Sequence record: DRR723986_2292
Reading direction: 5' to 3' (one strand)
DNA: 52,782 nt
The notes under the pieces were generated by a model. It saw nothing but the letters and a program-made list of their open reading frames with translations, made no database searches and was not told the DNA's origin. Numbering within the stretch: position 1 is the first letter of the stretch; each line of letters begins with the position of its first letter. A program made the position numbers and the translations under genes. Below, in pieces: positions 21,636 through 45,005 of this stretch.

Positions 21636-23027
21636 CTACAAGCGATTAAGGCCATTCAGCGCCGCGGTGCGATAAGCCTCGGCCATAGTGGGGTAGTTAA
21701 AGGTGGTTCCCAGGAAGTAACGCAGGCTGTTTCCACCGTTCTTCTGTTTCATAATTGCCTGGCCGATATGAATAATTTCCGCCGCTTCGGCACCGAAACA
21801 GTGAATCCCGAGAATCTCCAGGGTTTCTACATTAAACAGCAGCTTCAGCATGCCAACGGTTTCCCCGCTGATCTGCCCCCGGGCGGTGTCTTTAAAAAAT
21901 GCCCGGCCCACTTCATAGGGTACGCGTTGCTCGGTGAGCTCGCGCTCATTCAGGCCCACTGAACTAATTTCCGGCAGGGTGTATATCCCTGTGGGTACGT
22001 CGTCGACAAACCGGCACTGCTCCTTACCGCGCGCCGACGCCGATGCCGCCCGCCCCTGGTCGTAGGCAGCGCTGGCCAAGCTCGGCCAGCCAATCACATC
22101 GCCGGCGGCGTAGATATTCTCAACATTCGTCTGGTAGTGCTCGTCCACGTTTAACTGGCCGCGATGATCCGGCGTGATGCCCACGGTCTCTAGCCCCAGG
22201 CGGTCGGTATTACCGCTGCGCCCGTTACACCACAGCAGGGCATCGGCGTGAAGGCGCTTGCCACTTTCCATTTTTAGGACGACTTCCTTATCACTGGCCT
22301 CAACCTCGCTATAGACCTCGCGGTGGCGAATCATTACGCCGAGGTGGCGTAAGTGATAACTCAGTGCATCGGAGATTTCGTCGTCGAGGAATTCCAACAA
22401 GCGGTCACGGGTATTGACCAGTTCCACCTTGATCCCGATACCAGAAAAGATTGAGGCGTACTCGCAACCAATCACACCAGCGCCGTAAACAATAATTTTA
22501 CGGGGCGTATTGGTCATCGCCAGGATACTGTCACTGTCGTAAACACGCGGGTGACTGAAGTCGATATTCGCGGGCCGGTAGGGGCGCGAGCCCGTTGCAA
22601 TCACAATGTTCTCGGCGCTGTAGTGCTCTTGTTTGCCGTCTTCACCTTCCACAGCCAATGTATGCGCATCGACAAAGCTCGCCCTGCCGGGAATCACACG
22701 AATATTATTGCGATAGTAAAAGCGGCTGCGCATGGCCACTTGGCGGGCGATCACCTCGTTAGCGTGGCTGAGTAAACGCGGATACGTGAGCGTTCGCGGG
22801 TCGCCAATTTCCCGGAAAATGGGCATGCGATTAAAGCGGATCGCCTGTCGCACCATATGGCGCAGGGCCTTGGAAGGAATGGTTCCCTGGTGAGTGCAAG
22901 CCCCCCCAACCTGTGACTGCTCCTCGATAACAGCAGCACTTTGACCATGTTTGACCGCGTTCAATGCCGCGCTTTCGCCGGCAGGCCCGCTGCCAATTAC
23001 CAGTACATCAAAATCATAGTTGGCCAA
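21636..23027 (-). CDS. sthA: Soluble Si-specific NAD(P)+ transhydrogenase
   Basis: [39 protein letters not shown] and [21 protein letters not shown] motifs. TTG start at 23027 after AAGGAAGG gives 463 aa. Confidence 0.95.
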
Positions 23028-23154
23028 TTTACCCTTCCTTATCGCCGCTGCGCGGGGCGTTAACCACTTAGAGCTATTCAGGCAGTATACTACCGCCATC
23101 GCAAGAGAAAGGGGATTCGACCTTGGTCTGTCCCCAAGCCCAAGAGACCAAGCC

Positions 23155-23769
23155 GTGCCCACAAGCTCCCACCAACGAGAACACTATGGCCTGCGCTATA
23201 TGATGGCGAGCGCGCCAGCAATGCGCCGCCTCAAGCGCGGCAACAACAGCCGCTTGCACGGCAGCAAAAATTGGGGCGCGGCATTCTTATTGATGGAATA
23301 CCTGAGCCAGCACCCTCTCCCGCCCAATCGCTCCGTACTCGATGTCGGCTGTGGCTGGGGGCTGGCGGGACTGTATTGCCGCAAACGCTTTCATTCAGCG
23401 GTGACTGCCAGCGACGCTGACCCAGCGGTATTCCCCTATCTTCAGGCGCAGGCCGACATTAACGACCTCACTATCGACACCGAGGTCTGGCGCTTTGCCG
23501 ACATTCCAGACAACGCGCTTGCGGCGGCCGATACTCTGATCGCCAGCGATATTTGCTTTTGGGACGATATGGCTGAAGAGGTTTACCAGCTTATCGCCCG
23601 CGCTGTTGAAGCCGGTTGCGGCAGAATTCTCATTGCCGACCCCGGTCGGCCACCCTTTTTAGCGGTAGCGGAGGCCTGTATTGAGGACTTCTATGCCGAG
23701 CTCGTGCCCGTCAAAGCCCATACGTCACGGCCACACCGCGGCTATGTGCTGCGTATCGAGAACGCCTGA
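23155..23769 (+). CDS. Class I SAM-dependent methyltransferase (METTL21/Methyltransf_16-like)
   Basis: [32 protein letters not shown] and LIADPGR motifs. Start uncertain; GTG 23155 chosen. Confidence 0.8.
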
Positions 23770-23770
23770 A

Positions 23771-23826
23771 CTGTCTCAATACTGCAATATTGCTGTCACG
23801 TAACTGAAAGCTGTCAGGGGTAGTGT
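23771..23826 (+). promoter_or_regulatory. Pho-box array (4 x 11-bp direct repeats) plus -10 element for the PAP2 operon
   Basis: CTGTCTC (23771), CTGCAAT (23782), CTGTCAC (23793) and CTGAAAG (23804) at exact 11-bp period; TAGTGT 10 bp after the last heptamer. Confidence 0.7.
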
Positions 23827-23847
23827 TTGATTCGAGAGGATTAAACT

Positions 23848-24375
23848 ATGCGCTTGATACAGACAATAAATCAGTTCGATGTGCGGATGTTTCTCGCTTG
23901 CGTTAACACTCGCCACCAACAGCAACTCTGCCGGCTCGCCTTTGCCATATCAAAGAGTGGCGATGGCTATACGCAGCTCTTTCTGCCACTCGCGCTCTAT
24001 GCACTGGGCGTGCACAGCAGCGAGATATTTGTTGCTAGCGTAGCAACCGGATTCGCGGTGTGGCTACCGCTCTACTGGGTGTTGAAAAATACCTGTCGCC
24101 GCAAGCGGCCTCCCGCGGCAATCCCGCAATTCAATGCCGCCATCATTGCCTCGGACGAGTTTAGCTTTCCATCAGGGCATACCGCCGCCGCCTTTCTACT
24201 CGCGACCTTAGCCGTACTGTGCTTTGGCGCCGCCGCATCAGTACTCTTCCTTTGGGCGGTGGCCGTGGGCGCTTCACGAGTGGTACTGGGCGTGCACTTC
24301 CCAACTGACACCTTTGCCGGCGCTGGCCTTGGCATTGCCCTCGCGCACGTTGCCCACAGTCTGGTGATCGGTTGA
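23848..24375 (+). CDS. PAP2 family membrane phosphatase
   Basis: LKNTCRRKRP (KxxxxxxRP), SFPSGH and SRVVLGVHFPTD: the three PAP2 motifs. Confidence 0.92.
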   Translation: MRLIQTINQFDVRMFLACVNTRHQQQLCRLAFAISKSGDGYTQLFLPLALYALGVHSSEIFVASVATGFAVWLPLYWVLKNTCRRKRPPAAIPQFNAAIIASDEFSFPSGHTAAAFLLATLAVLCFGAAASVLFLWAVAVGASRVVLGVHFPTDTFAGAGLGIALAHVAHSLVIG

Positions 24376-24406
24376 TCTTAGCAATCAAAGAGACACGCGC
24401 TTCACA

Positions 24407-25462
24407 ATGAAACTACTCTATGGGGTCCAGGGCACTGGCAACGGACACATCTCCCGCGCTCGCATGATGGCGAAGCACTTCGCCGCTCGCAACGTCGATG
24501 TGCAATATCTGTTTAGCGGTCGCTCGCCAGAACAGTACTTCGACATGGACGTATTCGGCGACTTTCAGCTGCGCCACGGCCTCACTTTTGCAACGCGGGA
24601 TGGCCGGATAAGCACCCTGCAAACCCTGCGAGAGTCGCGGCCGCTGCAATTTATAAAAGATGTGCGCTCGCTCGATCTCAGCGACTACGATCTTGTGATT
24701 ACCGACTTCGAACCCGTTACCGCCTGGGCCGGCCGACTGCAAGGGAAAACCGTCATCGGCGTCGGCCACCAGTATGCATTTGGCCACCCCGGTGTACCCG
24801 AGGACGGCGTAGATTTGCGCAATCGCTTGATCATGAAACTGTTCGCTCCCGTTAAAGTGGGGCTCGGCCTACACTGGCATCACTTTGGCGGCCCAATTGT
24901 GCCGCCAATTATTAACCCCGACGAGAAACGTTTAGCACCGGCGCCGCACACCCTCGTTTATCTTCCCTTCGAGGATCAGCAGCGCGTCACCGCGTTGCTA
25001 CAAAGTTTCAAAGATCAACATTTCATCCAATATGCGCCGACGCTCTCTGACGCTGACCACGGCAACGTTTCACACCGAAAAACCAACCTTCACGGGTTTA
25101 AGCACGATCTGTGTAGTGCCCGAGGCGTAATCTGCAACGCCGGCTTTGAGCTGGTTAGCGAATGCTTGCACATGGGCATTCCGGTATTGACCAAGCCCGT
25201 TGCCGGCCAGTCAGAGCAACTGGGTAACGCGGCGTCACTGCGTCAACTCAAACTTGCCGACACCATGGCCGACATTGATCGCGAGCACATCGCGAGCTGG
25301 CTGCGACAGCCTCAGTACAGTGCCGCGCAAAACTACCCCGATGTCGCCGGCGCAATTTGCGAGTGGTTGCTTTCCGGGCAATGGCACAATCGCCAGGCTC
25401 TCGTGGATGCCCTTTGGCAGAACGAGCAAAACCACGCCCTGACCGCCGACCTGTCCCTTTGA
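24407..25462 (+). CDS. MJ1255/VC2487 family GT-B glycosyltransferase
   Basis: MKLLYGVQGTGNGHISR, ITDFEP, GHQYAF, VYLPFE, NAGFELVSE and GQSEQ motifs. Confidence 0.88.
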   Translation: MKLLYGVQGTGNGHISRARMMAKHFAARNVDVQYLFSGRSPEQYFDMDVFGDFQLRHGLTFATRDGRISTLQTLRESRPLQFIKDVRSLDLSDYDLVITDFEPVTAWAGRLQGKTVIGVGHQYAFGHPGVPEDGVDLRNRLIMKLFAPVKVGLGLHWHHFGGPIVPPIINPDEKRLAPAPHTLVYLPFEDQQRVTALLQSFKDQHFIQYAPTLSDADHGNVSHRKTNLHGFKHDLCSARGVICNAGFELVSECLHMGIPVLTKPVAGQSEQLGNAASLRQLKLADTMADIDREHIASWLRQPQYSAAQNYPDVAGAICEWLLSGQWHNRQALVDALWQNEQNHALTADLSL

Positions 25463-26574
25463 ATAACGACAGCCAGCCATCCGACAGACATTTTGTCGGG
25501 CCGCCCCCGCTCAATTTCCATGAATTAATGGACGACTGCCGCGGCCCCCTGCACCGGCGCCTGTCTGAGCTGTTGGCGGTTGAGCAGCTCTGCCGCCAAG
25601 CCGGGCCGCTGCTAAAAAGCCGCTGCGAAGCGGTAATTGATGTTGATAATTTTCGGCTGCCCATCGTCTCGCTAACCCTGGGGGATCCACAACGCGCCAG
25701 GAGCTGTTTGCTGCTGACCGGAGGTGTGCACGGAGTAGAGCGTATCGGCAGTCAGGTATTGATTGCCTGGTTGGAGTCAGCACTGGAACGCTGCCGCTGG
25801 GACACTCACTGGCGGCAGCAATTTGATGAAGACATCGCCATCATCGCCGTACCTATCGTCAACCCCGCGGGGATGCTGCGCGACGCCCGCTGCAACGCCA
25901 ACGCCGTTGATCTCAACCGCCATGCGCCGATAGATGCCGAAGACCGGGTTCCTTTTCTTGTTGGCGGGCAAAGGCTGTCGCGCCATTTGCCGTGGTACCG
26001 CGGGCGCTGGGAGAAACAGGTAGAGCCGGAGTTTCAGGCCCTGAGCGATATCATCGACAGGCATAGCCGGGGAGGCGACCGGATGATGATGGCGATAGAC
26101 TTTCACTCAGGCTTCGGCTTTCGCGACCACATTTGGATTCCTCACGCCTACCGCAAACAGCCCATCGATGATATCGGCAGCTATATGTCGCTGAAGCTGC
26201 TGTGGGAGCGCAACTTTCCCCACCACAATTACGTATTCGGCCCGCAGGCGATGCACTACCTCAGCCATGGCGACATGTGGGACTACTTTTATCTGCGTTG
26301 CCGCGAGCGCGGCTGCCGCCTGCTGCCACTCACCCTGGAAATGGGCAGTTGGCTGTGGGTGAAAAAACACCCCCGCCAACTGTTCAGCTTCGCCGGTCTA
26401 TTTAACCCGACCGTGCCGCACCGCCATGCACGTGTTTTACGGGGGCACTTATTGTTGATCGACTTCCTGCTGGCCGCCTGCCGAAATAGCGCAGAGTGGC
26501 TGACCCACGGCGAACAAGACCGGCAGATGCAGCAAATCGCGCAAACCCTTTGGTATCAGCACCTCAATGACTGA
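25459..26574 (+). CDS. M14 family zinc carboxypeptidase/deacylase-like protein
   Basis: GGVHGVE (HxxE), NANAVDLNR, IDFHSG and LTLEMG motifs. TTG start in a TTGA overlap with the glycosyltransferase stop. Confidence 0.82.
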   Translation: MNNDSQPSDRHFVGPPPLNFHELMDDCRGPLHRRLSELLAVEQLCRQAGPLLKSRCEAVIDVDNFRLPIVSLTLGDPQRARSCLLLTGGVHGVERIGSQVLIAWLESALERCRWDTHWRQQFDEDIAIIAVPIVNPAGMLRDARCNANAVDLNRHAPIDAEDRVPFLVGGQRLSRHLPWYRGRWEKQVEPEFQALSDIIDRHSRGGDRMMMAIDFHSGFGFRDHIWIPHAYRKQPIDDIGSYMSLKLLWERNFPHHNYVFGPQAMHYLSHGDMWDYFYLRCRERGCRLLPLTLEMGSWLWVKKHPRQLFSFAGLFNPTVPHRHARVLRGHLLLIDFLLAACRNSAEWLTHGEQDRQMQQIAQTLWYQHLND

Positions 26575-27316
26575 ATCATCGCCAAAGCACTGGCTCTTTT
26601 TGCGAGGCCTGGCCAGAGAGACCGGCCACTGGCAACCGTTTATCGAACAGTGTCAGAACACCCTAGCCTGGCAGTGCCACAGCCTGGATCTGCCCGGCTT
26701 TGGCACAGAGCACAATGGCGTATCGCCGCTGTCGATCCGACAAATCCGCCAGAACCTGCAATCCCGGCTCACTCTGCCCGAAGGCGAAGCCATCGGCATT
26801 GTTGCGCTGTCACTTGGCGGCATGGTTGCCCTGGACTGGTTAGCCCACGACCCACAGCGTGTGCACCGCGCCATACTCATCAATTCCAGTAGCGCAAATT
26901 GCCCGCTCTGGTGGCGCATTCAGCCACGCGCCCTGCCACTGCTTGTACGCGGTGTTTTTGCGCCGTCGATCGACAGTCAGGAGCGCTGGGCGCTGCGCAT
27001 GGTGAGCAACCAACACAGCGAGGATGCGTCGGTATTGAATCGGCACAAACAATTGCGCGCGCGGCACCCCGCCCAAAAAAGTAATGTACTGCGACAGCTC
27101 TGGGCCGCCTCGCGCTTTCGCGCACCCGCAAAACTGGCCCCACATCAACGCCTGCACCTGCTTGCCAGCCACGGCGATCGCATGGTGTCGTGGCGCTGCA
27201 GCAACGCACTGGCTGAGCGTTTTAACTGTTCGCTGGATGTTCACCCCAACGCCGGACACGACCTTCCCCTGGATGCCCCGGACTGGGTAATTCAGCAGTT
27301 TGCCGCGCGGCGATAA
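26567..27316 (+). CDS. Alpha/beta fold hydrolase
   Basis: FLRGL, LDLPGFG, nucleophile elbow ALSLGG, HGDRMV (Asp) and AGHDLP (His). 8-bp overlap with the M14 gene. Confidence 0.88.
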   Translation: MTESSPKHWLFLRGLARETGHWQPFIEQCQNTLAWQCHSLDLPGFGTEHNGVSPLSIRQIRQNLQSRLTLPEGEAIGIVALSLGGMVALDWLAHDPQRVHRAILINSSSANCPLWWRIQPRALPLLVRGVFAPSIDSQERWALRMVSNQHSEDASVLNRHKQLRARHPAQKSNVLRQLWAASRFRAPAKLAPHQRLHLLASHGDRMVSWRCSNALAERFNCSLDVHPNAGHDLPLDAPDWVIQQFAARR

Positions 27317-27327
27317 TCCACAGCGCT

Positions 27328-27362
27328 AAAAAAACCGCGCAAGCCTGTTTGGCCTGCGCGGT
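27328..27362 (-). terminator. Intrinsic terminator between the convergent operons
   Basis: Minus strand ACCGCGCAGGCC-AAACA-GGCTTGCGCGGT followed by TTTTTT. Confidence 0.75.
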
Positions 27363-27393
27363 CTTCGCCATTACCTTGCTGTTTTTAACGCGC

Positions 27394-29100
27394 TCAGTAG
27401 CCCAAGTAGCGCTTGCGGCGTGCGGGTTTCATTTTCTCTATGTCGACGAGTACCAGGCCATCAATGCAGTCGGCAAAATCCGGGTCCACATTAAAATCGG
27501 CAAAGCTCACGCCACCCGGCTCACATAGCTCTGTATATTGCTTGTAGAGGGTGGGCACCGAACACCCCTGCTGAGCCAGTGATGCCTTGAGCTGCACAAA
27601 TTCTTCCTTGTAGTCCTTGCCGTAACTCACCGGTGTGTTTAGCTCGCTGCGATACGGCATCTTGGCGCTCGCCCACTGTCGCTCATCGGCAAAGTGGCTG
27701 CGATAAAAATGCAATAGTTCATCTTTGGCGGCCTTCGGCAACTCGTCACTCAAACTGACCGGGCCAAACAGGTAGCGCAACTCGGGGTACTTCGCCAAAT
27801 ACTGCCCCACGCCCTGCCAGAGATAATCCAGCGCATTGCGGCCCCAATACTTCGGCTGAACGAAGGAGCGTCCTAGCTCGACACCTCGGGCAAAAATCTC
27901 ACTGGCGGCGTCCGCGTTGTAGTCAAACAGGGTTTGGCTGTAGAGGGTTTGCTCGTCGGTTAAAGTGGCAACCTGTTTCAGCCGATACGCACCGACCAAC
28001 TCCAGCTGCTCTTCATCCCACAATACAATGTGGTCGTAGTAAGCATCGTAACTATCAACATCGCGTCGGTGCCCAGTACCTTCGCCAACGGCGCGGAAAC
28101 TCACTTCTCGCAGCCGGCCGATCTCGCGCATGATGGTGCAATCACCACTGTACTGATAGCGGTATATCTCCATGCCGTCGCGGCTGCTCCCCAGGCGCTC
28201 ACAGCTTCGTATCGCCTTGCGCAGTTCCTGACGGTCCTCGGGGTGTGCCACCGGTTGCGCGTGAGGCATAAAACACGGCTCGCCCCGGCGTTTGCGCTTT
28301 CCCAGTTTGTATAGATGCTTTTTAAATAAATGGACTTTTGCCGGGGTAGTAAGCGGCAGTTGCTGGTATACCGAGGGCTCGACTGCCGCCCCAATGCTTA
28401 CTCTCACTGTGCGGTTATTCTGCTTGAACATTTCGCGAATCAACCACAGTGTAGAAAGCGGCTTGGCAAGCAGAGACAGGGCGTAGAAAAATACCGAGTT
28501 GCGAGCGCTAATATGCACCGGCAGAATCGGCGCTTCGGCACGCTCGGCAAACTTTAAAAAACCGTTGCGCCAGCGGCCATCGCGAATGCCAGCGGGGCTA
28601 AAACGCGAGACCTCTCCAGCGGGGAAAATGATCACGGCTCCCTCGCCTTCAATATGCTCATGAATCGCCTTGAGATTTTCCTTGCGATTGCGTTTGCCGC
28701 TCATATTATCCACGGGCAGTAACATTGAGCGCAGCGGTTTCAGGGCATACAGCAATTCATTGGCAACAACCTTAACATCGCCGCGCACTTCCGATACCAG
28801 TTTCAACAGCGCGAGGCCGTCGAGGCTGCCAATGGGGTGATTGGATATGATGACCACCCTGCCCGACACAGGGATACGCTCCTTATCCAGCGCGCTAACG
28901 GCATAGCCGAAGTCGAAGTAATGCAGCACCTGCTCAACAAAGTCCATGCCCTGTAGATGCGGGTAGTCCTTTTCAAACTGCTTAAACTCCGCCTCGTGAA
29001 ACAGGTAGCGCAACAAAGTGGTGAGCGTGCGTTTTATATGGGGATTGCCACTGGCAATACGCGGAAATCGCTCATTGATAACAGCATCAACGGAGATCAT
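27394..29100 (-). CDS. Bifunctional PlsC-type O-acyltransferase + OlsB-type GNAT N-acyltransferase (OlsF-like ornithine/amino-lipid synthase)
   Basis: N-terminal NHPIGSLDG (HX4D-like) and IFPAGEVS. C-terminal EIGRLREVSFR, D.DSYD..YDH, VGAYR, VELGRSFV, PTLYKQY and FNVDPDF. 568 aa. Confidence 0.8.
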   Translation of the reverse strand: MISVDAVINERFPRIASGNPHIKRTLTTLLRYLFHEAEFKQFEKDYPHLQGMDFVEQVLHYFDFGYAVSALDKERIPVSGRVVIISNHPIGSLDGLALLKLVSEVRGDVKVVANELLYALKPLRSMLLPVDNMSGKRNRKENLKAIHEHIEGEGAVIIFPAGEVSRFSPAGIRDGRWRNGFLKFAERAEAPILPVHISARNSVFFYALSLLAKPLSTLWLIREMFKQNNRTVRVSIGAAVEPSVYQQLPLTTPAKVHLFKKHLYKLGKRKRRGEPCFMPHAQPVAHPEDRQELRKAIRSCERLGSSRDGMEIYRYQYSGDCTIMREIGRLREVSFRAVGEGTGHRRDVDSYDAYYDHIVLWDEEQLELVGAYRLKQVATLTDEQTLYSQTLFDYNADAASEIFARGVELGRSFVQPKYWGRNALDYLWQGVGQYLAKYPELRYLFGPVSLSDELPKAAKDELLHFYRSHFADERQWASAKMPYRSELNTPVSYGKDYKEEFVQLKASLAQQGCSVPTLYKQYTELCEPGGVSFADFNVDPDFADCIDGLVLVDIEKMKPARRKRYLGY

Positions 29101-29117
29101 TATTCAGTACCTCTGGC

Positions 29118-29927
29118 TTAACTGGCGCGCCGCATTGGCAGCACATCTGCGCTTTTCGGTTCGCCGATCTTGTCGAGTGATTGCTGCGTTTCGGTCCACT
29201 GAAGCAGCTCAAGCTCGCCGTCATGGCTTTCCGACAGCAAAGTGCAATTCTCAATCCAGTCGCCGTCATTGCAGTACAGCAGGCCATCAATTTCCTTCAG
29301 CGCGGGCTGATGAATGTGGCCGCAGATAACACCGTCCAGACCGCGCCTCTCCGCTTCCTTAACAGCGGCACGTTCGAAGACATCGATCACTTGGCGAGCA
29401 TTGGGGATTCGTTGTTTGATATACGTGGCAAGCGACCAATAGTGGCGACCAAAGCGGCGGCGGAAAAAATTGGCCCAGCGGTTGAGGAACAACAGCAAAT
29501 CGTAAGCGGCGTCGCCGATAAGGCTCTCCCACTTTCGCAGTTGCATATGCTCATCGAGAATATCACCGTGAAACATCAACAGGCGCTTACCCTTCACAGT
29601 GGTGTACACAGCTTCTTTGCGAATTTCGATGGGACCGAAAATATTCCCAACATAGTCCCGGAACGGTTCGTCGTGGTTGCCCGGTATGTAGACAACACGT
29701 GTGCCAGCATTCGCTTTATGGAACAGCGTGCGGAGCACTTCGTAGTGGCTGGGAGGCCAGTACAGGCTACGTTTCATGGCCCATAAATCGACAACATCAC
29801 CAACCAAGTAAATCGTTTCACAGTCCACTCGGTTTAAGAAATCGAGCAGGTAATCTGCGCGACAATCTTTGAAGCCCAGGTGAATATCAGATAGCCATAT
29901 GGTTTTGTAATGTGTCTGCGCTGTCAC
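29118..29927 (-). CDS. Metallophosphoesterase, LpxH2/PlcP-like (candidate phospholipase C)
   Basis: WLSDIHLG, YLVGDVVD, YIPGNHD, FHGD, ICGHIH and YCNDGDW motifs. GTG start after GGGAG. Confidence 0.85.
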   Translation of the reverse strand: MTAQTHYKTIWLSDIHLGFKDCRADYLLDFLNRVDCETIYLVGDVVDLWAMKRSLYWPPSHYEVLRTLFHKANAGTRVVYIPGNHDEPFRDYVGNIFGPIEIRKEAVYTTVKGKRLLMFHGDILDEHMQLRKWESLIGDAAYDLLLFLNRWANFFRRRFGRHYWSLATYIKQRIPNARQVIDVFERAAVKEAERRGLDGVICGHIHQPALKEIDGLLYCNDGDWIENCTLLSESHDGELELLQWTETQQSLDKIGEPKSADVLPMRRAS

Positions 29928-29957
29928 GCGTCGCGCTCCCGCTATGCATTTGTGGCA

Positions 29958-30013
29958 ATGCTACGGCGCGTAAATGACAGCGTTCGGACAATTTAACGAC
30001 AAAATTATGACAA
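29958..30013 (-). promoter_or_regulatory. Pho-box array (4 x 11-bp direct repeats) plus -10 element for the plcP-olsF operon
   Basis: Minus strand reads TTGTCATaatt TTGTCGTtaaa TTGTCCGaacg CTGTCAT, then 10 bp, then TAGCAT. This matches the CTGTCAT-N4 PhoB consensus. Confidence 0.85.
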
Positions 30014-30026
30014 ACGGGGAGGCAAT

Positions 30027-30446
30027 CTAGTGGGAGCGAACGGCAGATGGGTAGTATTTTTTTAGCACAGCTTCGAGCTTTTCTTCATCGAGCGGCTTCA
30101 GAGTAAACTCGGATACCAGGCCTCTCTCTTCAGCTTTCGAGCGATCGTCAGGGTTCTGCGACGTCGTCAGCATCACAACGACCACGCCGGCCTTCTGCTT
30201 AGAAGGGAGGTTTTCATAAGCCTCCAGGAATTCCCAACCGTTCATCACCGGCATATTGATATCGAGCAAAATAAGTTCTGGCTGGGGGTGTTTATCCACG
30301 CCGCTGCGCAGATAATCCAGCGCCTGCGCACCGTCGCGGCACTCCACAACCGTCTCAGCGCAGCCATAATTATCGATCACAAGGCGGTGGATGAAATTGG
30401 TTGCCTGACAGTCATCCACCAATAAGATCGTTTTAAGTTTTGCCAT
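30027..30446 (-). CDS. Single-domain response regulator (Rcp1-like receiver)
   Basis: ILLVDD, PELILLDINMPVMNGWEFL, VMLTTS and KP motifs. Start at ATG 30446, overlapping the kinase stop. Confidence 0.9.
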   Translation of the reverse strand: MAKLKTILLVDDCQATNFIHRLVIDNYGCAETVVECRDGAQALDYLRSGVDKHPQPELILLDINMPVMNGWEFLEAYENLPSKQKAGVVVVMLTTSQNPDDRSKAEERGLVSEFTLKPLDEEKLEAVLKKYYPSAVRSH

Positions 30447-32418
30447 GCTGCTCTCCAAACAGAGTAAAACAGAAGCAGCTACCACCACCCCCAGCGCTTT
30501 CGATCCAGATATTGCCGCCATGCTGTTCGACAATTTTCTTGCACTGCGCCAAACCAATCCCCGTACCGGGGAAATCTTCCCGCCCGTGCAAGCGCTGGAA
30601 AATCAGAAATACACGCTCTCGGTGCGCCTCGTCAATACCAATACCGTTATCTTTCACGCAGAATTTCCAGCCACCATCACAGGCCTGAGCGTTAATTTCA
30701 ACACAGGGAACCACATCGTCCTTAACGTACTTCAAACCGTTGCCAATCAGGTTCTGAAACAGCATGCGTAAGCTGGCGGCATGACCAACAATCGTCGGCA
30801 ACCCGCGGAAGCGGACGTTAGCACCGCGCTCGCGAATCTGTACGGCTAAATCGTCGCAGACGTCAGCAACCAGCGACTGGCAATTCACTGGCTCCCAGGG
30901 AGCGTCTTGCCCCAGCCGGCTGTATTCAAGCAGGCCATTAATCAACAACTCCATCCGCGAGGCTGACTGGTTGATGAAGGCTAAAAATTGCTGCGATTGC
31001 TCATCAAAATTTTCGGCATTTTTTTGCTCAAACAAGCCGACAAAACTCTTAATCGTACGCAGTGGTTCCTGCAAGTCATGAGACGCAATGTAGGCAAACT
31101 GTTCCAGCTCTTTATTTGCTCTGGCCACTCGTCCCAGGTTCTGTTCAAGCTCCGTTTGCACCGCTCTACGCTGAACAACTTCGTTTTCCAGGGCGCGCTG
31201 CTGGGTGGTGAGTTCGTCGAGCAGTGCGCTGAACTCGCGGGCCAGGGCCCCGACCTCTGCATAGGCATCCACCGGCAAATCTTCAGCGCGCGTCGCCCTG
31301 CCTTTTTGCTGAATAACCGTGCGCATATGCTGAAGTGGCGCAACAATTTTCTGCGCGAGGATCGTGGCCAATGCAAGAAACACCAGCAAGGTGGTAACCA
31401 CGAACACACTTTGTTTCTTTAGCAGCTCGCGACTAACGACCATGGCATCCCGGTAGGGCAAGCTCACAACAACGGCTAGCTGCTGTCCCGCACTACCCAG
31501 TTGATAACCCAGTTTTTTGAGTGCAAAAAGGCGGCGCTGGTCGCCTACATTTGTTTGCGTTTGCCAAACTTGACGATTTGCATCGGCGAGAAACTGGTCC
31601 GCCTCAGGTAAATCATCGACAAGGGTGCTGCGCTCGCCGTATTCAAAGCGGAAGGTTTTACTGCGATCTGGGTGAAGTAAATAGTCACCGCCGCTCCGAA
31701 CAATATAGTGGGCTAACTCGTCCTGGGCCGCCTCGCCGATACGCGAGAACATTTCTTCCAGGCGGTGATTCACAACAATCACGCCACGGCGCTGCCCCTG
31801 GCTATCGTAGACCGGCGTCACCGCACGAATAACGGCATGGGGAGGTTGCATTATTTGGTGGTTTTCACGGTTTAAGCCGATGTCAGACAACCAGACGACA
31901 TCCTCTGGCAAGGTCAGGCCTGCCTGGACATAATCCCGGTGAGCCTTATTCTGCAAGTCGGCGTCTGCGACAATTCTGACCTGCCCACCGCTGCCATAAC
32001 GATCCACGCGCACCACTTCTTGGCCGCTGGCGTCGAGGAGTCGAATCTGCACGCTCATGGGTTTGGCGGCCAACATTTGCAAAAATGCTTGTTGAAGATG
32101 ATCGCGCCAGTGCGCCGAGGCCGCCGATTTTGCGTCGACAGCCCGGCTTTCCAGCAAGCCTGCAACAGCGGGAGCATGGCGCAGAAAAGCGACATCGCGA
32201 AGCAATTCGCCGATATAGGCATCAAATTGCAAGCTCAACCGCTCCGCCTCTGCACTCAACTGCTGCTGTCGCCGGTCGAGCAGCTGCTGTTCAAGAGTGG
32301 AAACGGTACTGAAAATCACCACCGCATTGCTGAGCACAACTGCGGCAAGCAATACCAGCAGGACGCGCCGAGCAATAGAGCTACCTTTGACGAGATTTAG
32401 GAATCGCTGCTTTTTCAT
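30433..32418 (-). CDS. Membrane sensor histidine kinase (periplasmic Cache-like domain, HAMP, HisKA, HATPase)
   Basis: Two TM helices; FAYIASHDLQEPLR H-box, FQNLIGNGLKY, DNGIGI, IFQRLH and GTGIGLA motifs. Start 32418 or 32439. Confidence 0.92.
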   Translation of the reverse strand: MKKQRFLNLVKGSSIARRVLLVLLAAVVLSNAVVIFSTVSTLEQQLLDRRQQQLSAEAERLSLQFDAYIGELLRDVAFLRHAPAVAGLLESRAVDAKSAASAHWRDHLQQAFLQMLAAKPMSVQIRLLDASGQEVVRVDRYGSGGQVRIVADADLQNKAHRDYVQAGLTLPEDVVWLSDIGLNRENHQIMQPPHAVIRAVTPVYDSQGQRRGVIVVNHRLEEMFSRIGEAAQDELAHYIVRSGGDYLLHPDRSKTFRFEYGERSTLVDDLPEADQFLADANRQVWQTQTNVGDQRRLFALKKLGYQLGSAGQQLAVVVSLPYRDAMVVSRELLKKQSVFVVTTLLVFLALATILAQKIVAPLQHMRTVIQQKGRATRAEDLPVDAYAEVGALAREFSALLDELTTQQRALENEVVQRRAVQTELEQNLGRVARANKELEQFAYIASHDLQEPLRTIKSFVGLFEQKNAENFDEQSQQFLAFINQSASRMELLINGLLEYSRLGQDAPWEPVNCQSLVADVCDDLAVQIRERGANVRFRGLPTIVGHAASLRMLFQNLIGNGLKYVKDDVVPCVEINAQACDGGWKFCVKDNGIGIDEAHRERVFLIFQRLHGREDFPGTGIGLAQCKKIVEQHGGNIWIESAGGGGSCFCFTLFGEQHGKT

Positions 32419-32517
32419 CGAGCCTCTAAAAGCCGGCATGCAGAATCGCCCCCTCTCCCTGGAAGCCGTCGATACATACTAGTCTAGTCACCGTGCCCGC
32501 GACTTGCGTATTAACCC

Positions 32518-42626: not shown

Positions 42627-45005
42627 CTATGCGTTGCCATCTGTCGCGCTCGTGACTTGCTGATGGGGCTTGGCGCCAAACAGCCACGCTAATGCGGGAA
42701 GAACCAGCAAGGCACCCACCATATTCCAGAAGAACATAAAGGTTAGCATTAGCCCCATATCGGCCTGGAATTTAATGGGCGAGTAGATCCACGTCCCTAC
42801 CCCGACGGCCAGGGTTAAGCCCGTAAAGGCCACCGCGGTACCACTGGTTTTCAGTGCCGAAAAATACGCGCTGCGAAGGTCCTGACCCTCGCGCAAGAAA
42901 TGCGCTAAAGCGGTATAAATATAGATGCCGTAGTCGACCCCAATTCCCACCCCAAGCGCGATCACAGGCAGTGTTGCCACCTTGACGCCAATGCCCAGCA
43001 TCGCCATCAATGCCTGACCGAGTAAAGAGGTCAGCATCAGCGGCAGGATGATGCAGGCAGTGATTTTTAGCGAGCGGAAATTGAGCAGGCACAGCACAAT
43101 CACCACGCCATATACCCAGATCAGCATACGGTTCTGCGCGGTGCGAATCACAATGTTCGTTGCCGCTTCAACACCGGCATTGCCAGCCGCTAAGCGGAAG
43201 CTTATGTGTTCGCTATTGTACTGCTCGGTAAAGCCCTCTGCGGCAGCAATCACTTGATCAAGAGTGTCCGCCTTGTGATCCTCAAGGAATAGAATCACCG
43301 GCACCATCGAACAATCGGTATTTAACAAGTTGCTGGGCACGCGGCTCAGGGAGTTATTCAAAATATATTGATTGCGACTCAACGCATGCCACTGAGGGTT
43401 ACCCTCGTTCATGCCCATGATCACCAGCTTGGAAATATCAACCAGCGACAACGCCGATTGCACCCCCGGCACATTTTCCATAACCGCTTGAAAATGGTCT
43501 ATTGCCGCCAGCGACTGGTAGTTGCCACATTGCTGAGGCGGGGTATGCGCCATCACAACAAAGACATCGGTACTGGTCGAGTAATTATCGGTAAGAAAAG
43601 CGGTATCGAGATTGTAACGAGAGTGCGGGCGCAGCTCGGGCGCGCCGGGGTCGAGATCGCCAATCTTTTGCTGCTGGGCCAACCACCAGCCGCCTGCGAA
43701 AAGCACCGTGCAGGCCGCAACAATCAATTTGGCATTGCGCGGTAGACTCGCCGCCGACAGCTGGTGCCAATGACGATATTCGCTGTTGAGTTTGTCGTCG
43801 CGGTAGCGGTGACAGCGTTGACTGATTCCGGTGTAGGACAACACCAACGGGAGTAAGATCAGGTTGGTTAACACCAGCACCGCGATGCCGGTACTGGCGA
43901 TCAGAGCCAGCTCTTGAATAACCGGAATATCAATTACGCGAAGAGTAAGAAAGCCCACACCATCGCTAAGCAGGGCAATAAAGCCCGGCTTGCTCAACCG
44001 AACGAAGGTTAGCTTGGCGGCTTCCCGCGTGTCGACGGCGCTGTGGCTTAGGTGTGCAAAGCGGTTGATGATCTGCACCGAGTGGCTGATGCCCACCGCA
44101 AAGACCAAAAACGGCACCAGCATCGAATAGGGGTCTAAGCCGAGGCCCATAATGGGCAACAACCCCAGCTGCCAGACCACCGCAACCGTTGAACACAGCA
44201 ACGCGGCAAACGTGCTCCAATGGCAGCGACTATACAAAAACAGCATCACCGCAGTGATCACAAAGGCAACCGCGAAGAAGGTCCCTACCAGTGACGCCCC
44301 GTCGATCAGGTCCCCTACCAGTTTGGCAAAACCGGTAATGTGGATACGCAGGTCTTCTGTCTGATATTTGTCGCGCACCAGCGCTTCAAGGTCAGCCGAT
44401 AGTTGCTGGTAGTCAAGGCGCTCGCCCGTCTTCGGGTCGCGCTCAACCAGCGGCGCCACAATAATGGTGGAGCGGAAATTGTTGGCCACCAAGCGACCGA
44501 TCTGGCCCGACTTAAGTGTGTTAGCGCGAAGCTTTTCCAAAGCCTGAGGCGAACCGTCGTAATCGTCTGGAATAACTGCGCCGCCGACAAAGCCCTCTTC
44601 GGTCACCTCCAGCCAGCGGACGTTAGGCGTCCACAAAGACTGAAGGCCGGCGCGATCGACGCCGTTTATATAAAAAACCTCGTCGGTGATCTCTTGAAGG
44701 GTTTGTTGAAATTCCTGGCTAAATATATCGCCGTTTTTATTTTCAACGATGATGCGCACCGCATTACCCAGCCCGGACAGGTCTTCGCGGTTTTCCAGAA
44801 AATTAACAATATAGGGATGAGATACCGGGATCATTTTTTCGAAGCTGGCATCCGGTCGCAACCCCCGCAGCTGCCAGCCAAAAAATGCCGTCAGGATCAC
44901 AAATAGCAGTATTAGCGGCGCTCTGGCACGCAGTAACAGCGCGCCCAAAAACGGGCGTAAACGGCCATCCTCTTCCGTTAAGGTCAAGCTTTCTTCGCTA
45001 CTCAC
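42627..45005 (-). CDS. RND/MMPL family inner-membrane transporter
   Basis: Two repeats of a periplasmic domain plus TM bundle; GFAKLVGDLIDG, GISHSVQ and GVGIGVDYGIY motifs. GTG start after GGAGAGG. Confidence 0.9.
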   Translation of the reverse strand: MSSEESLTLTEEDGRLRPFLGALLLRARAPLILLFVILTAFFGWQLRGLRPDASFEKMIPVSHPYIVNFLENREDLSGLGNAVRIIVENKNGDIFSQEFQQTLQEITDEVFYINGVDRAGLQSLWTPNVRWLEVTEEGFVGGAVIPDDYDGSPQALEKLRANTLKSGQIGRLVANNFRSTIIVAPLVERDPKTGERLDYQQLSADLEALVRDKYQTEDLRIHITGFAKLVGDLIDGASLVGTFFAVAFVITAVMLFLYSRCHWSTFAALLCSTVAVVWQLGLLPIMGLGLDPYSMLVPFLVFAVGISHSVQIINRFAHLSHSAVDTREAAKLTFVRLSKPGFIALLSDGVGFLTLRVIDIPVIQELALIASTGIAVLVLTNLILLPLVLSYTGISQRCHRYRDDKLNSEYRHWHQLSAASLPRNAKLIVAACTVLFAGGWWLAQQQKIGDLDPGAPELRPHSRYNLDTAFLTDNYSTSTDVFVVMAHTPPQQCGNYQSLAAIDHFQAVMENVPGVQSALSLVDISKLVIMGMNEGNPQWHALSRNQYILNNSLSRVPSNLLNTDCSMVPVILFLEDHKADTLDQVIAAAEGFTEQYNSEHISFRLAAGNAGVEAATNIVIRTAQNRMLIWVYGVVIVLCLLNFRSLKITACIILPLMLTSLLGQALMAMLGIGVKVATLPVIALGVGIGVDYGIYIYTALAHFLREGQDLRSAYFSALKTSGTAVAFTGLTLAVGVGTWIYSPIKFQADMGLMLTFMFFWNMVGALLVLPALAWLFGAKPHQQVTSATDGNA

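Follow-up and report, generated by a model that had tools for sequence, protein, structure and literature searches.

Replacement of phospholipids by phosphorus-free lipids is a major phosphorus-saving strategy of marine bacteria, and it alters their sensitivity to antibiotics and phages. This pathway is known for PlcP acting with Agt or BtaAB. The present report concerns two convergent operons at positions 23771–30013 of DRR723986_2292, a stretch of 52,782 nucleotides (nt) that was analysed whole and is referred to as the window. The DNA is that of a Spongiibacter (Spongiibacteraceae, Cellvibrionales), and together the operons very probably form an island for membrane-lipid renovation under activation by PhoB. 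An earlier sequence-only reading had proposed a phosphate-starvation locus that strips phosphate from lipids and builds two phosphorus-free replacements, and the analysis supports that overall reading.

The PlcP–Agt renovation pathway and its Pho boxes are well described (PMC4796936, PMC8528852), and its organisms are Sinorhizobium, Phaeobacter MED193, SAR11 HTCC7211, and Pseudomonas aeruginosa (PA3219/PA3218/PA0842). As in the pathway set out in the available text of these papers, the island has a Pho-box promoter before a plcP-led operon, an LpxH-like metallophosphoesterase that would supply diacylglycerol, and a glycosyltransferase and amino lipids that would replace phospholipids under phosphorus stress. 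In contrast to that pathway, the island plcP shares its operon with olsF rather than with agt or btaAB. olsF is not among the six plcP contexts named in the main text of PMC4796936, whose Supplementary Table S2 lay outside the comparison. The island glycosyltransferase also differs from Agt, a GT4 enzyme, in belonging to the MJ1255/VC2487 family (GT-B fold, GT1/GT28-like), and its gene shares the other operon with those of a PAP2 phosphatase and two hydrolases.

OlsF is also documented under phosphate control. A Pho box precedes olsF in Serratia proteamaculans, and Vibrio cholerae has a PhoB-dependent OlsF (VC0489), according to the available text of PMC12971839 and PMC12186959. The island protein resembles these enzymes in being a bifunctional N- and O-acyltransferase that exceeds the NCBIfam equivalog cut-off. 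Unlike theirs, its gene stands second behind plcP and shares the plcP promoter, with no box of its own in the window; an own box at olsF is found in some relatives (loci L019, L021, L024, L027).

PlcP, OlsF, and the Pho boxes are of known kinds, and the glycosyltransferase family and the hydrolase pair are uncharacterised. In the open literature, with subscription journals and supplementary tables outside its scope, the search found no functional study of the glycosyltransferase family, no plcP–olsF operon, and no pairing of an M14 enzyme with an α/β-hydrolase. The accounts of Pho regulons that were found do not mention such a pair.

The features of the island are listed in order along the window, with the evidence for each call in brackets. 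Sequence geometry, conservation, family membership, and co-occurrence were observed directly.

23771–23810, plus strand: left Pho-box array of four heptamers at an 11-base-pair (bp) period, equal to two tandem Pho boxes (sequence reading, matrix score, and alignment)
23821–23826, plus strand: left -10 element TAGTGT, 10 bp beyond the last left heptamer; the operon ATG is at 23848
23848–24375, plus strand: PAP2-family membrane lipid phosphatase, 175 amino acids (PF01569, 71.7 bits)
24407–25462, plus strand: MJ1255/VC2487-family GT-B glycosyltransferase, candidate diacylglycerol glycosyltransferase, 351 amino acids (TIGR00661)
25459–26574, plus strand: M14 metallocarboxypeptidase-fold enzyme, DUF2817-like, starting at TTG 25459 or ATG 25528 (PF00246 and PF10994)
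26567–27316, plus strand: α/β-hydrolase, 249 amino acids (PF12697 and PF00561)
27328–27362, minus strand: intrinsic terminator of the plcP–olsF operon, hairpin at 27334–27362, 32 nt past the olsF stop (stem followed by a T-run)
27394–29100, minus strand: OlsF, bifunctional ornithine-lipid synthase, 568 amino acids (NF052615 equivalog)
29118–29927, minus strand: PlcP-like Mn-type metallophosphoesterase, LpxH paralogue, 269 amino acids (PF00149)
29958–29963, minus strand: right -10 element TAGCAT, 10 bp beyond the last right heptamer
29974–30013, minus strand: right Pho-box array of four heptamers at an 11-bp period (sequence reading, matrix score, and alignment)

The profile matches bear out all six gene calls of the sequence-only reading: PAP2, glycosyltransferase, M14-like enzyme, α/β-hydrolase, OlsF, and LpxH-like metallophosphoesterase.

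In the proposed model, phosphate starvation would cause phosphorylated PhoB to bind two tandem Pho boxes, in place of a -35 element, at each of the two convergent promoters. From the minus-strand operon, the PlcP-type phospholipase C would cleave phospholipids to diacylglycerol and a phospho-headgroup, and OlsF would build ornithine lipid. From the plus-strand operon, PAP2 most likely would convert phosphatidic acid to diacylglycerol, thereby diverting de novo synthesis too. The MJ1255/VC2487-family enzyme would then glycosylate diacylglycerol, doing the job of Agt by another family and probably giving a β-linked product, the anomer that a GT1/GT28-like inverting enzyme should form. The last two genes would encode a cytoplasmic zinc carboxypeptidase-fold amidase and an α/β-hydrolase that form a conserved pair. 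Homology and gene context are the grounds for PhoB dependence and for every substrate and product named in this model.

If so, the island ties a large uncharacterised glycosyltransferase family to the phosphate-starvation lipid response, brings in a PAP2 phosphatase that likely supplies diacylglycerol alongside PlcP, and flags a conserved amidase–esterase pair. Strains of Spongiibacter and Zhongshania are cultured, which makes these predictions directly testable.

Promoters of the two operons

Enterobacterial pstS-type promoters contain four consecutive direct repeats of 7 bp, separated by 4-bp spacers, that end 10 bp before the -10 element and replace the -35 element. Both island arrays share that repeat layout. 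The left heptamers are, in order, CTGTCTC (23771–23777), CTGCAAT, CTGTCAC, and CTGAAAG (23804–23810), and the right heptamers are TTGTCAT (30013–30007), TTGTCGT, TTGTCCG, and CTGTCAT (29980–29974). At both promoters, the repeats resemble CTGTCAT, the box occupies the -35 place, and the distance to the TAnnnT -10 element is exactly 10 bp. These arrays and -10 elements lie precisely where the sequence-only reading had put them. The right operon begins with a GTG codon at 29927, with GGGAG just 5′ of it. The Pho-box consensus printed in PMC8528852, within the text available, is CTGTCATNNNNCTGTCAT. Unlike the enterobacterial consensus, that of this lineage is TTGTCAT/TTGTCAC; the left heptamer closest to the -10 element, CTGMAAN, is conserved although it departs from the consensus.

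A genome that is 98% identical over the island (G001) was used as a stand-in for comparison with known PhoB targets. Its phoB promoter reads TTGTCAT, 4 bp, TTGTCAT, 10 bp, TTTAAT, and its pstS promoter has three heptamers followed after 10 bp by TAAAAT. The 10-bp spacing between box and -10 element is shared by 28 phoB promoters of the family. The PhoB promoter geometry claimed from the sequence alone therefore agrees with the phoB and pstS promoters of the lineage itself, and it is kept upstream of both operons in relatives. A generic promoter and terminator scan of the window flagged neither promoter nor the hairpin between the operons, as the scanner needs a -35 element and a strict T-run on the scanned strand.

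The heptamer matrix used for scoring was trained solely on 18 unique phoB-promoter boxes; phoB loci had been collected from 29 of the 31 sampled genomes of the family, and boxes were extracted from 28. With four heptamers scored together, the right array (25.0) and the left array (15.1) are first and second in the window, and the next independent site scores 1.4. Dinucleotide shuffles reached the right score in none of 300 trials and the left score in one of 300. The best dimers of the two arrays, 15.5 on the right and 13.0 on the left, are likewise the top two among about 105,500 window positions, with the next at 9.6. Scoring with a PhoB matrix, a check named in the sequence-only reading, thus placed both arrays at the head of the window and also revealed a left array much weaker than the right. 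A fourth match to the pattern, at 44357, lies inside an 803-amino-acid open reading frame and was rejected as a chance match.

Conservation follows the same elements. In an alignment of six Spongiibacter and Zhongshania PAP2 promoters, the heptamer cores are invariant, and the -10 column reads TATGGT or TATGTT in the relatives. The alignment of seven plcP promoters keeps TAnnnT, and heptamers 1, 2, and 4 are conserved in relatives. Invariant columns in both alignments are the heptamer cores, the TAnnnT -10 element, the ribosome site, and the start codon, and nothing is conserved upstream of the arrays.

The association extends to more distant genomes. A search with the glycosyltransferase protein returned 80 loci, mostly of 17 kb, from Spongiibacteraceae, Halieaceae, Methylococcales, Alteromonadales, and metagenome-assembled genomes (MAGs) labelled Verrucomicrobiaceae; the closest are from Spongiibacter and Zhongshania. 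Both strands of each locus were scored. Of 69 testable loci, 37 had the best matrix site of the entire locus at most 200 nt in front of PAP2, vs 0.57 expected by position; for PlcP, the best site stood upstream of the gene in 6 of 27 loci (0.2 expected). Because intergenic DNA is AT-richer, the test was repeated against other intergenic upstream windows only. The PAP2 upstream region was then best in 48 of 59 loci (9.3 expected) and the PlcP upstream region in 8 of 22 (2.9 expected), with the PAP2 promoter included among the PlcP controls.

Transcript data give a weak hint in the same direction. Marine metatranscriptome runs contain 20–41% of the sequence words of the stretch. In four of these runs, each from a different study, RNA contigs that share about 97% identity with the window start at 23834, 23840, 23846, and 23846, near the predicted start at about 23833. 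On the other side, contigs of three runs end at 29939, 29933, and 29933, where the start is predicted at about 29951, and the next contigs begin at 30016–30021 and leave the right array uncovered. RNA depth was available per contig and was not used for gene ranking, and uncovered stretches in single runs were not taken as evidence.

Several observations weigh against a PhoB reading of these promoters. The ends of contigs are no proof of where transcripts end, and part of the material in the RNA libraries may be DNA. Shuffles of the 52.8 kb reached the right dimer score in 38 of 300 trials and the left in 174 of 300, so dimers by themselves fall short of significance, and the weight of the case lies in the four-repeat arrays and in how these are conserved. 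The left heptamers score 4.3, 2.5, 10.5, and -2.2, and just one of them is strong. Across G001, a consensus dimer with at most one mismatch has 17 matches vs 13 for the reversed control; the phoB promoter is the only exact match, and the plcP box is among the 17. The counts over loci overstate the case because related genomes and loci are not independent. Moreover, 11-bp direct repeats are bound by OmpR-family regulators in general, and G001 encodes four other close, full-length PhoB paralogues (168–207 bits).

The last two points leave room for a different regulator. Another member of the OmpR/PhoB family might bind the arrays on another signal, such as envelope or osmotic stress or low salinity, which would make the island a form of envelope stress-proofing. 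An orphan histidine kinase and a receiver protein are encoded directly beside plcP, but the receiver has no DNA-binding domain. The available text of PMC12186959 reports a second V. cholerae OlsF that is induced by low salinity and not by phosphate; the island heptamers, however, match the phoB autoregulatory box and the pstS promoter of the lineage in both sequence and -10 distance, and the same boxes stand before PAP2 and the glycosyltransferase gene in distant orders. Control by such a regulator is very unlikely.

The weakness of the left array raises a separate question. It could be a look-alike, with only the plcP–olsF promoter truly Pho and the PAP2 operon either constitutive or read through from the methyltransferase gene, which stops 2 bp short of the array and has a syntenic counterpart in about 20 loci. 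The low scores of three of its heptamers (at most 4.3) and the ease with which shuffles match its best dimer fit this account, whereas the near-absence of shuffles that match all four heptamers does not. Zhongshania and S. thalassae keep the four heptamer positions and the -10 element but not the flanks, and the region upstream of PAP2 holds the best PhoB site in the large majority of loci in the intergenic test. The RNA contigs of the four runs also begin at 23834–23846, and none among the pieces listed crosses the left array. A left array without function is most improbable, and activation of both operons by PhoB is the reading retained in what follows.

Lipid enzymes and their gene order

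The PlcP-like protein is an LpxH-related but distinct metallophosphoesterase that stands behind a Pho box in one operon with a phosphorus-free lipid synthase. LpxH models match it at 41–46 bits, below their cut-offs (41.4 vs 190), and G001 encodes a true housekeeping LpxH elsewhere that scores 307.8 bits vs 41.4 for the island enzyme. Its nearest PDB sequence is LpxH (E 3e-7). In the available text of PMC4796936, PlcP is defined by a BLASTP E value below 1e-40 to the MED193 protein. The comparison made here included no validated PlcP, which tells against a firm name; homology and context suggest that the island enzyme is a PlcP.

OlsF scores 827.6 bits with NF052615, vs a cut-off of 620, over residues 1–566. 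It contains an N-terminal O-acyltransferase domain (Acyltransf_2, PF19576) and a C-terminal N-acyltransferase domain (Acetyltransf_5, PF13444), and its gene starts 17 nt beyond the plcP stop. One genome of a sister genus carries a second, distant OlsF-like gene of 32% identity besides the island copy (G009:C16:143217-144794), which recalls the two OlsF paralogues of V. cholerae.

The histidine kinase beside plcP is a dCache-type sensor, and the receiver is a single-domain protein. Together they occupy 30027–32439 on the minus strand, directly upstream of the plcP promoter, and the pair is syntenic in Spongiibacter and Zhongshania loci (L009–L011). RNA contigs end about 6–11 nt past the stop of the receiver gene.

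The hairpin at 27334–27362 is preceded on the plus strand by A7, and its plus-strand tail has only two T. On the minus strand, A7 becomes the T-run after the stem, which makes the element a canonical intrinsic terminator for the olsF operon only. A terminator where the operons meet had been proposed from the sequence alone; this proves right for the minus-strand operon, whereas the plus-strand operon has a poor T tail there. One RNA contig, 26049–29939, spans the hairpin. The A7 run beside the terminator (27328–27334) is A6 in an environmental strain in three metatranscriptome runs, with one base missing at 27328.

PAP2 phosphatases are defined by the signature motifs KX6RP, PSGH, and SRX5HX3D, all of which appear in the translation of the first plus-strand gene. 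The glycosyltransferase gene follows after a gap of 31 nt. Its product matches TIGR00661 at 212.1 bits vs a cut-off of 195.9, and its sole Pfam match at E ≤ 0.01 is PF13528. It has no match to the GT4 domains Glycos_transf_1 or Glyco_trans_4; the protein is therefore not a member of the Agt group, though it may still work like Agt. The structural model has a mean predicted local distance difference test (pLDDT) score of 91.9 and a GT-B fold, with fold matches to GT1-type UGTs, antibiotic glycosyltransferases, and MurG, and some relatives also match the GT28 C-terminal domain. A sequence search of the PDB gave no match, and a search for fused forms found none. In a protein search, a sequence 99% identical to the glycosyltransferase was named from Spongiibacter marinus. 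At least 4,579 proteins match it at E ≤ 1e-30, and they are named only as "MJ1255/VC2487 family" or "TIGR00661 uncharacterized".

Gene order supports a link between this enzyme and lipid renovation. PAP2 lies directly upstream of the glycosyltransferase gene in 70 of the 80 loci, and three of the other ten have no upstream DNA; the pair is a widespread module behind a Pho box. Across the 80 loci, PlcP is present in 27, OlsF in 17, the M14 enzyme in 10, and the α/β-hydrolase in 11. The full arrangement occurs in seven Spongiibacter and Zhongshania loci, one of which (L009) is cut by a contig end. A reduced form, in which the PAP2–glycosyltransferase pair faces OlsF–PlcP without the hydrolases, is found in Litorivivens, other Spongiibacteraceae MAGs, and MAGs labelled Verrucomicrobiaceae. 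In three Methylococcales loci (L036, L050, L087), PlcP, PAP2, and the glycosyltransferase follow one another in that order on one strand, which ties the glycosyltransferase to PlcP-made diacylglycerol.

These Methylococcales loci have a counterpart in the literature. The available text of PMC9239053 reports "another putative DAG glycosyltransferase" and its transcripts beside plcP in type Ia methanotrophs, and it likens the gene to a processive enzyme of Bacillus without testing it. The Methylococcales loci found here are probably the same neighbourhood, and the reported gene may belong to the same glycosyltransferase family.

The acceptor of the glycosyltransferase is proposed from context alone, and GT1-like folds also glycosylate many non-lipid small molecules, which counts against the assignment to diacylglycerol. 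PAP2 and the glycosyltransferase might instead act on another carrier or envelope lipid: they could recycle undecaprenyl phosphate or diphosphate, dephosphorylate lipid A, or glycosylate a hopanoid, a carotenoid, or another small acceptor, and make no bulk membrane glycolipid. In NCBIfam, the PAP2 protein comes closest to undecaprenyl-diphosphatases and PgpB, with scores well short of every cut-off, and the fold matches of the glycosyltransferase include natural-product UGTs and MurG, a lipid-I enzyme; the open literature searched yielded no characterised member of its family. Such a role fits poorly with the conserved Pho boxes before the pair, with its position beside OlsF and PlcP in three families, and with the same-strand runs in several Methylococcales loci, where it takes the place that Agt has beside PlcP in other bacteria (PMC4796936, in the text available). 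Action on another lipid is accordingly quite unlikely, and a diacylglycerol glycosyltransferase is the preferred assignment. Some bacterial glycolipids have no identified synthase, including MGDG in Methylosinus (PMC9239053) and UGL in P. aeruginosa (PMC8528852), as these papers state in their available text. A new family of lipid glycosyltransferases is thus a useful class of candidates for them.

Among the 31 sampled family genomes, M14 matches were found in 27, glycosyltransferase matches in 26, and OlsF and PlcP matches in 25 each; each of the four is present in all 21 high-quality genomes. In the genus of the window, all four occur in 19 of 19 genomes and lie on one stretch in 17; of the remaining two, one has a 15-kb insertion and one is split over contigs. 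In the sister genus, the glycosyltransferase, OlsF, and PlcP genes are together in six of ten genomes, with the M14 gene elsewhere.

A S-adenosylmethionine-dependent methyltransferase (Methyltransf_25/16-like) is encoded at 23020–23769 on the plus strand, with a probable start near 23200. The loci with this gene upstream of PAP2 include those of Litorivivens and of MAGs labelled Verrucomicrobiaceae, and in one locus (L017) no PhoB-matrix site scores higher than one 39 nt in front of the methyltransferase gene. The methyltransferase may be part of the module; one conceivable role is methylation of a lipid headgroup.

Five MAGs labelled Verrucomicrobiaceae (L020, L023, L024, L026, L028) contain a methyltransferase–PAP2–glycosyltransferase block whose glycosyltransferase is 52–54% identical to that of the window. 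Three of them (L024, L026, L028) also have OlsF and PlcP, and Pho-like boxes precede PAP2 in MAGs with this label. These blocks suggest either transfer of the whole block or mislabelled bins.

The M14 enzyme and α/β-hydrolase pair

The third plus-strand gene encodes a zinc metallocarboxypeptidase-fold enzyme of the M14 type. It matches PF00246 at 40.4 bits vs 21.6, and its catalytic set HxxE, R, NR, H, E (H68, E71, R121, R131, H193, E271) is invariant in 19 sequences. These residues are the zinc ligands, the carboxylate-binding arginines, and the catalytic glutamate of M14 enzymes. The structural model has a pLDDT of 85, and Foldseek aligns it with carboxypeptidases T, A4, and B at TM 0.63–0.72. 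The best PDB match of its profile is carboxypeptidase B (E 4.8e-9), against which the register of the specificity pocket is ambiguous. A search for fused forms found one 696-amino-acid protein that covers 41% of the query.

The α/β-hydrolase is distantly related to the esterase Est1 and to PHB depolymerase. Its start overlaps the M14 stop by 8 nt, and TTG 25459, one of the two possible M14 starts, overlaps the glycosyltransferase stop. Neither translation shows an N-terminal hydrophobic stretch, so both enzymes are probably cytoplasmic.

The sequence-only reading had singled out these two hydrolases as unusual for a regulon of this kind. This remark holds, and the two are conserved as a pair. 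In Methylobacter and a betaproteobacterium, the pair also lies beside PAP2–glycosyltransferase or PlcP (L047, L054, L087). In seven M14 loci of sister genera that are unlinked from the island, the hydrolase is adjacent in all seven, and in five the best PhoB-matrix site lies just upstream of the M14 gene on the same strand, with scores of 11.8–15.7; three of these are near-identical. The pair thus appears to keep its regulation on relocation, which is the best argument for its membership of the regulon.

Among 401 sampled Gammaproteobacteria, the M14 gene occurs in seven genomes from seven families, and the hydrolase adjoins it in four of the six gammaproteobacterial loci outside the family of the window. 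An N-acyltransferase domain of the OlsB/OlsF type is present in all seven M14 genomes vs 110 of 401 overall (hypergeometric p = 1e-4), and the glycosyltransferase is present in three of seven vs 10 of 400 overall (p = 4e-4). Other counts speak less well for a functional link. The M14 genes of the six other gammaproteobacterial families have no clear Pho box upstream. An OlsF-like gene accompanies the M14 gene in only two of the seven genomes (p = 0.21), in one of them at a distance of 5.6 kb. The glycosyltransferase, too, co-occurs with the N-acyltransferase domain, in seven of ten genomes (p = 0.006), which means that all these genes may merely travel with a low-phosphate lifestyle.

An M14 enzyme requires an acylated amine beside a free carboxylate. 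Ornithine lipid is an N-acyl amino acid with a free carboxylate and one ester, so its chemistry fits an amidase–esterase pair. It is tentatively possible that the two enzymes trim or turn over acyloxyacyl amino lipids, with the hydrolase acting on the ester and the amidase on the N-acyl bond that adjoins the free carboxylate. The OlsHI pathway of Singulisphaera provides a precedent for an α/β-hydrolase that acts on an ester bond of an amino lipid, as OlsI is described in the available text of PMC12971839 as the O-acyltransferase of ornithine lipid; the likeness is one of description only. The two cases differ in that the window already encodes OlsF for O-acylation and in that OlsI has no M14 partner. 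The same 2026 review of these lipids does not, in its available text, contain the words degradation, deacyl, or turnover.

A joint proposal combines both plus-strand functions: the M14 enzyme and the hydrolase would form a Pho-controlled amino-lipid deacylase pair that releases ornithine, and PAP2 and the glycosyltransferase would form an Agt-independent route to diacylglycerol glycolipids. As a whole this is rather doubtful. If true, the pair would be the first known catabolic or editing enzymes for acyloxyacyl amino lipids, and the PAP2–glycosyltransferase route would assign a role to an uncharacterised protein family whose members number in the thousands.

Two genomes of the genus have extra DNA within the island, between the hydrolase side and olsF: about 15 kb in one (G022:C1:704444-719415) and about 1.5 kb in the other (G010:C1:3434007-3436395).

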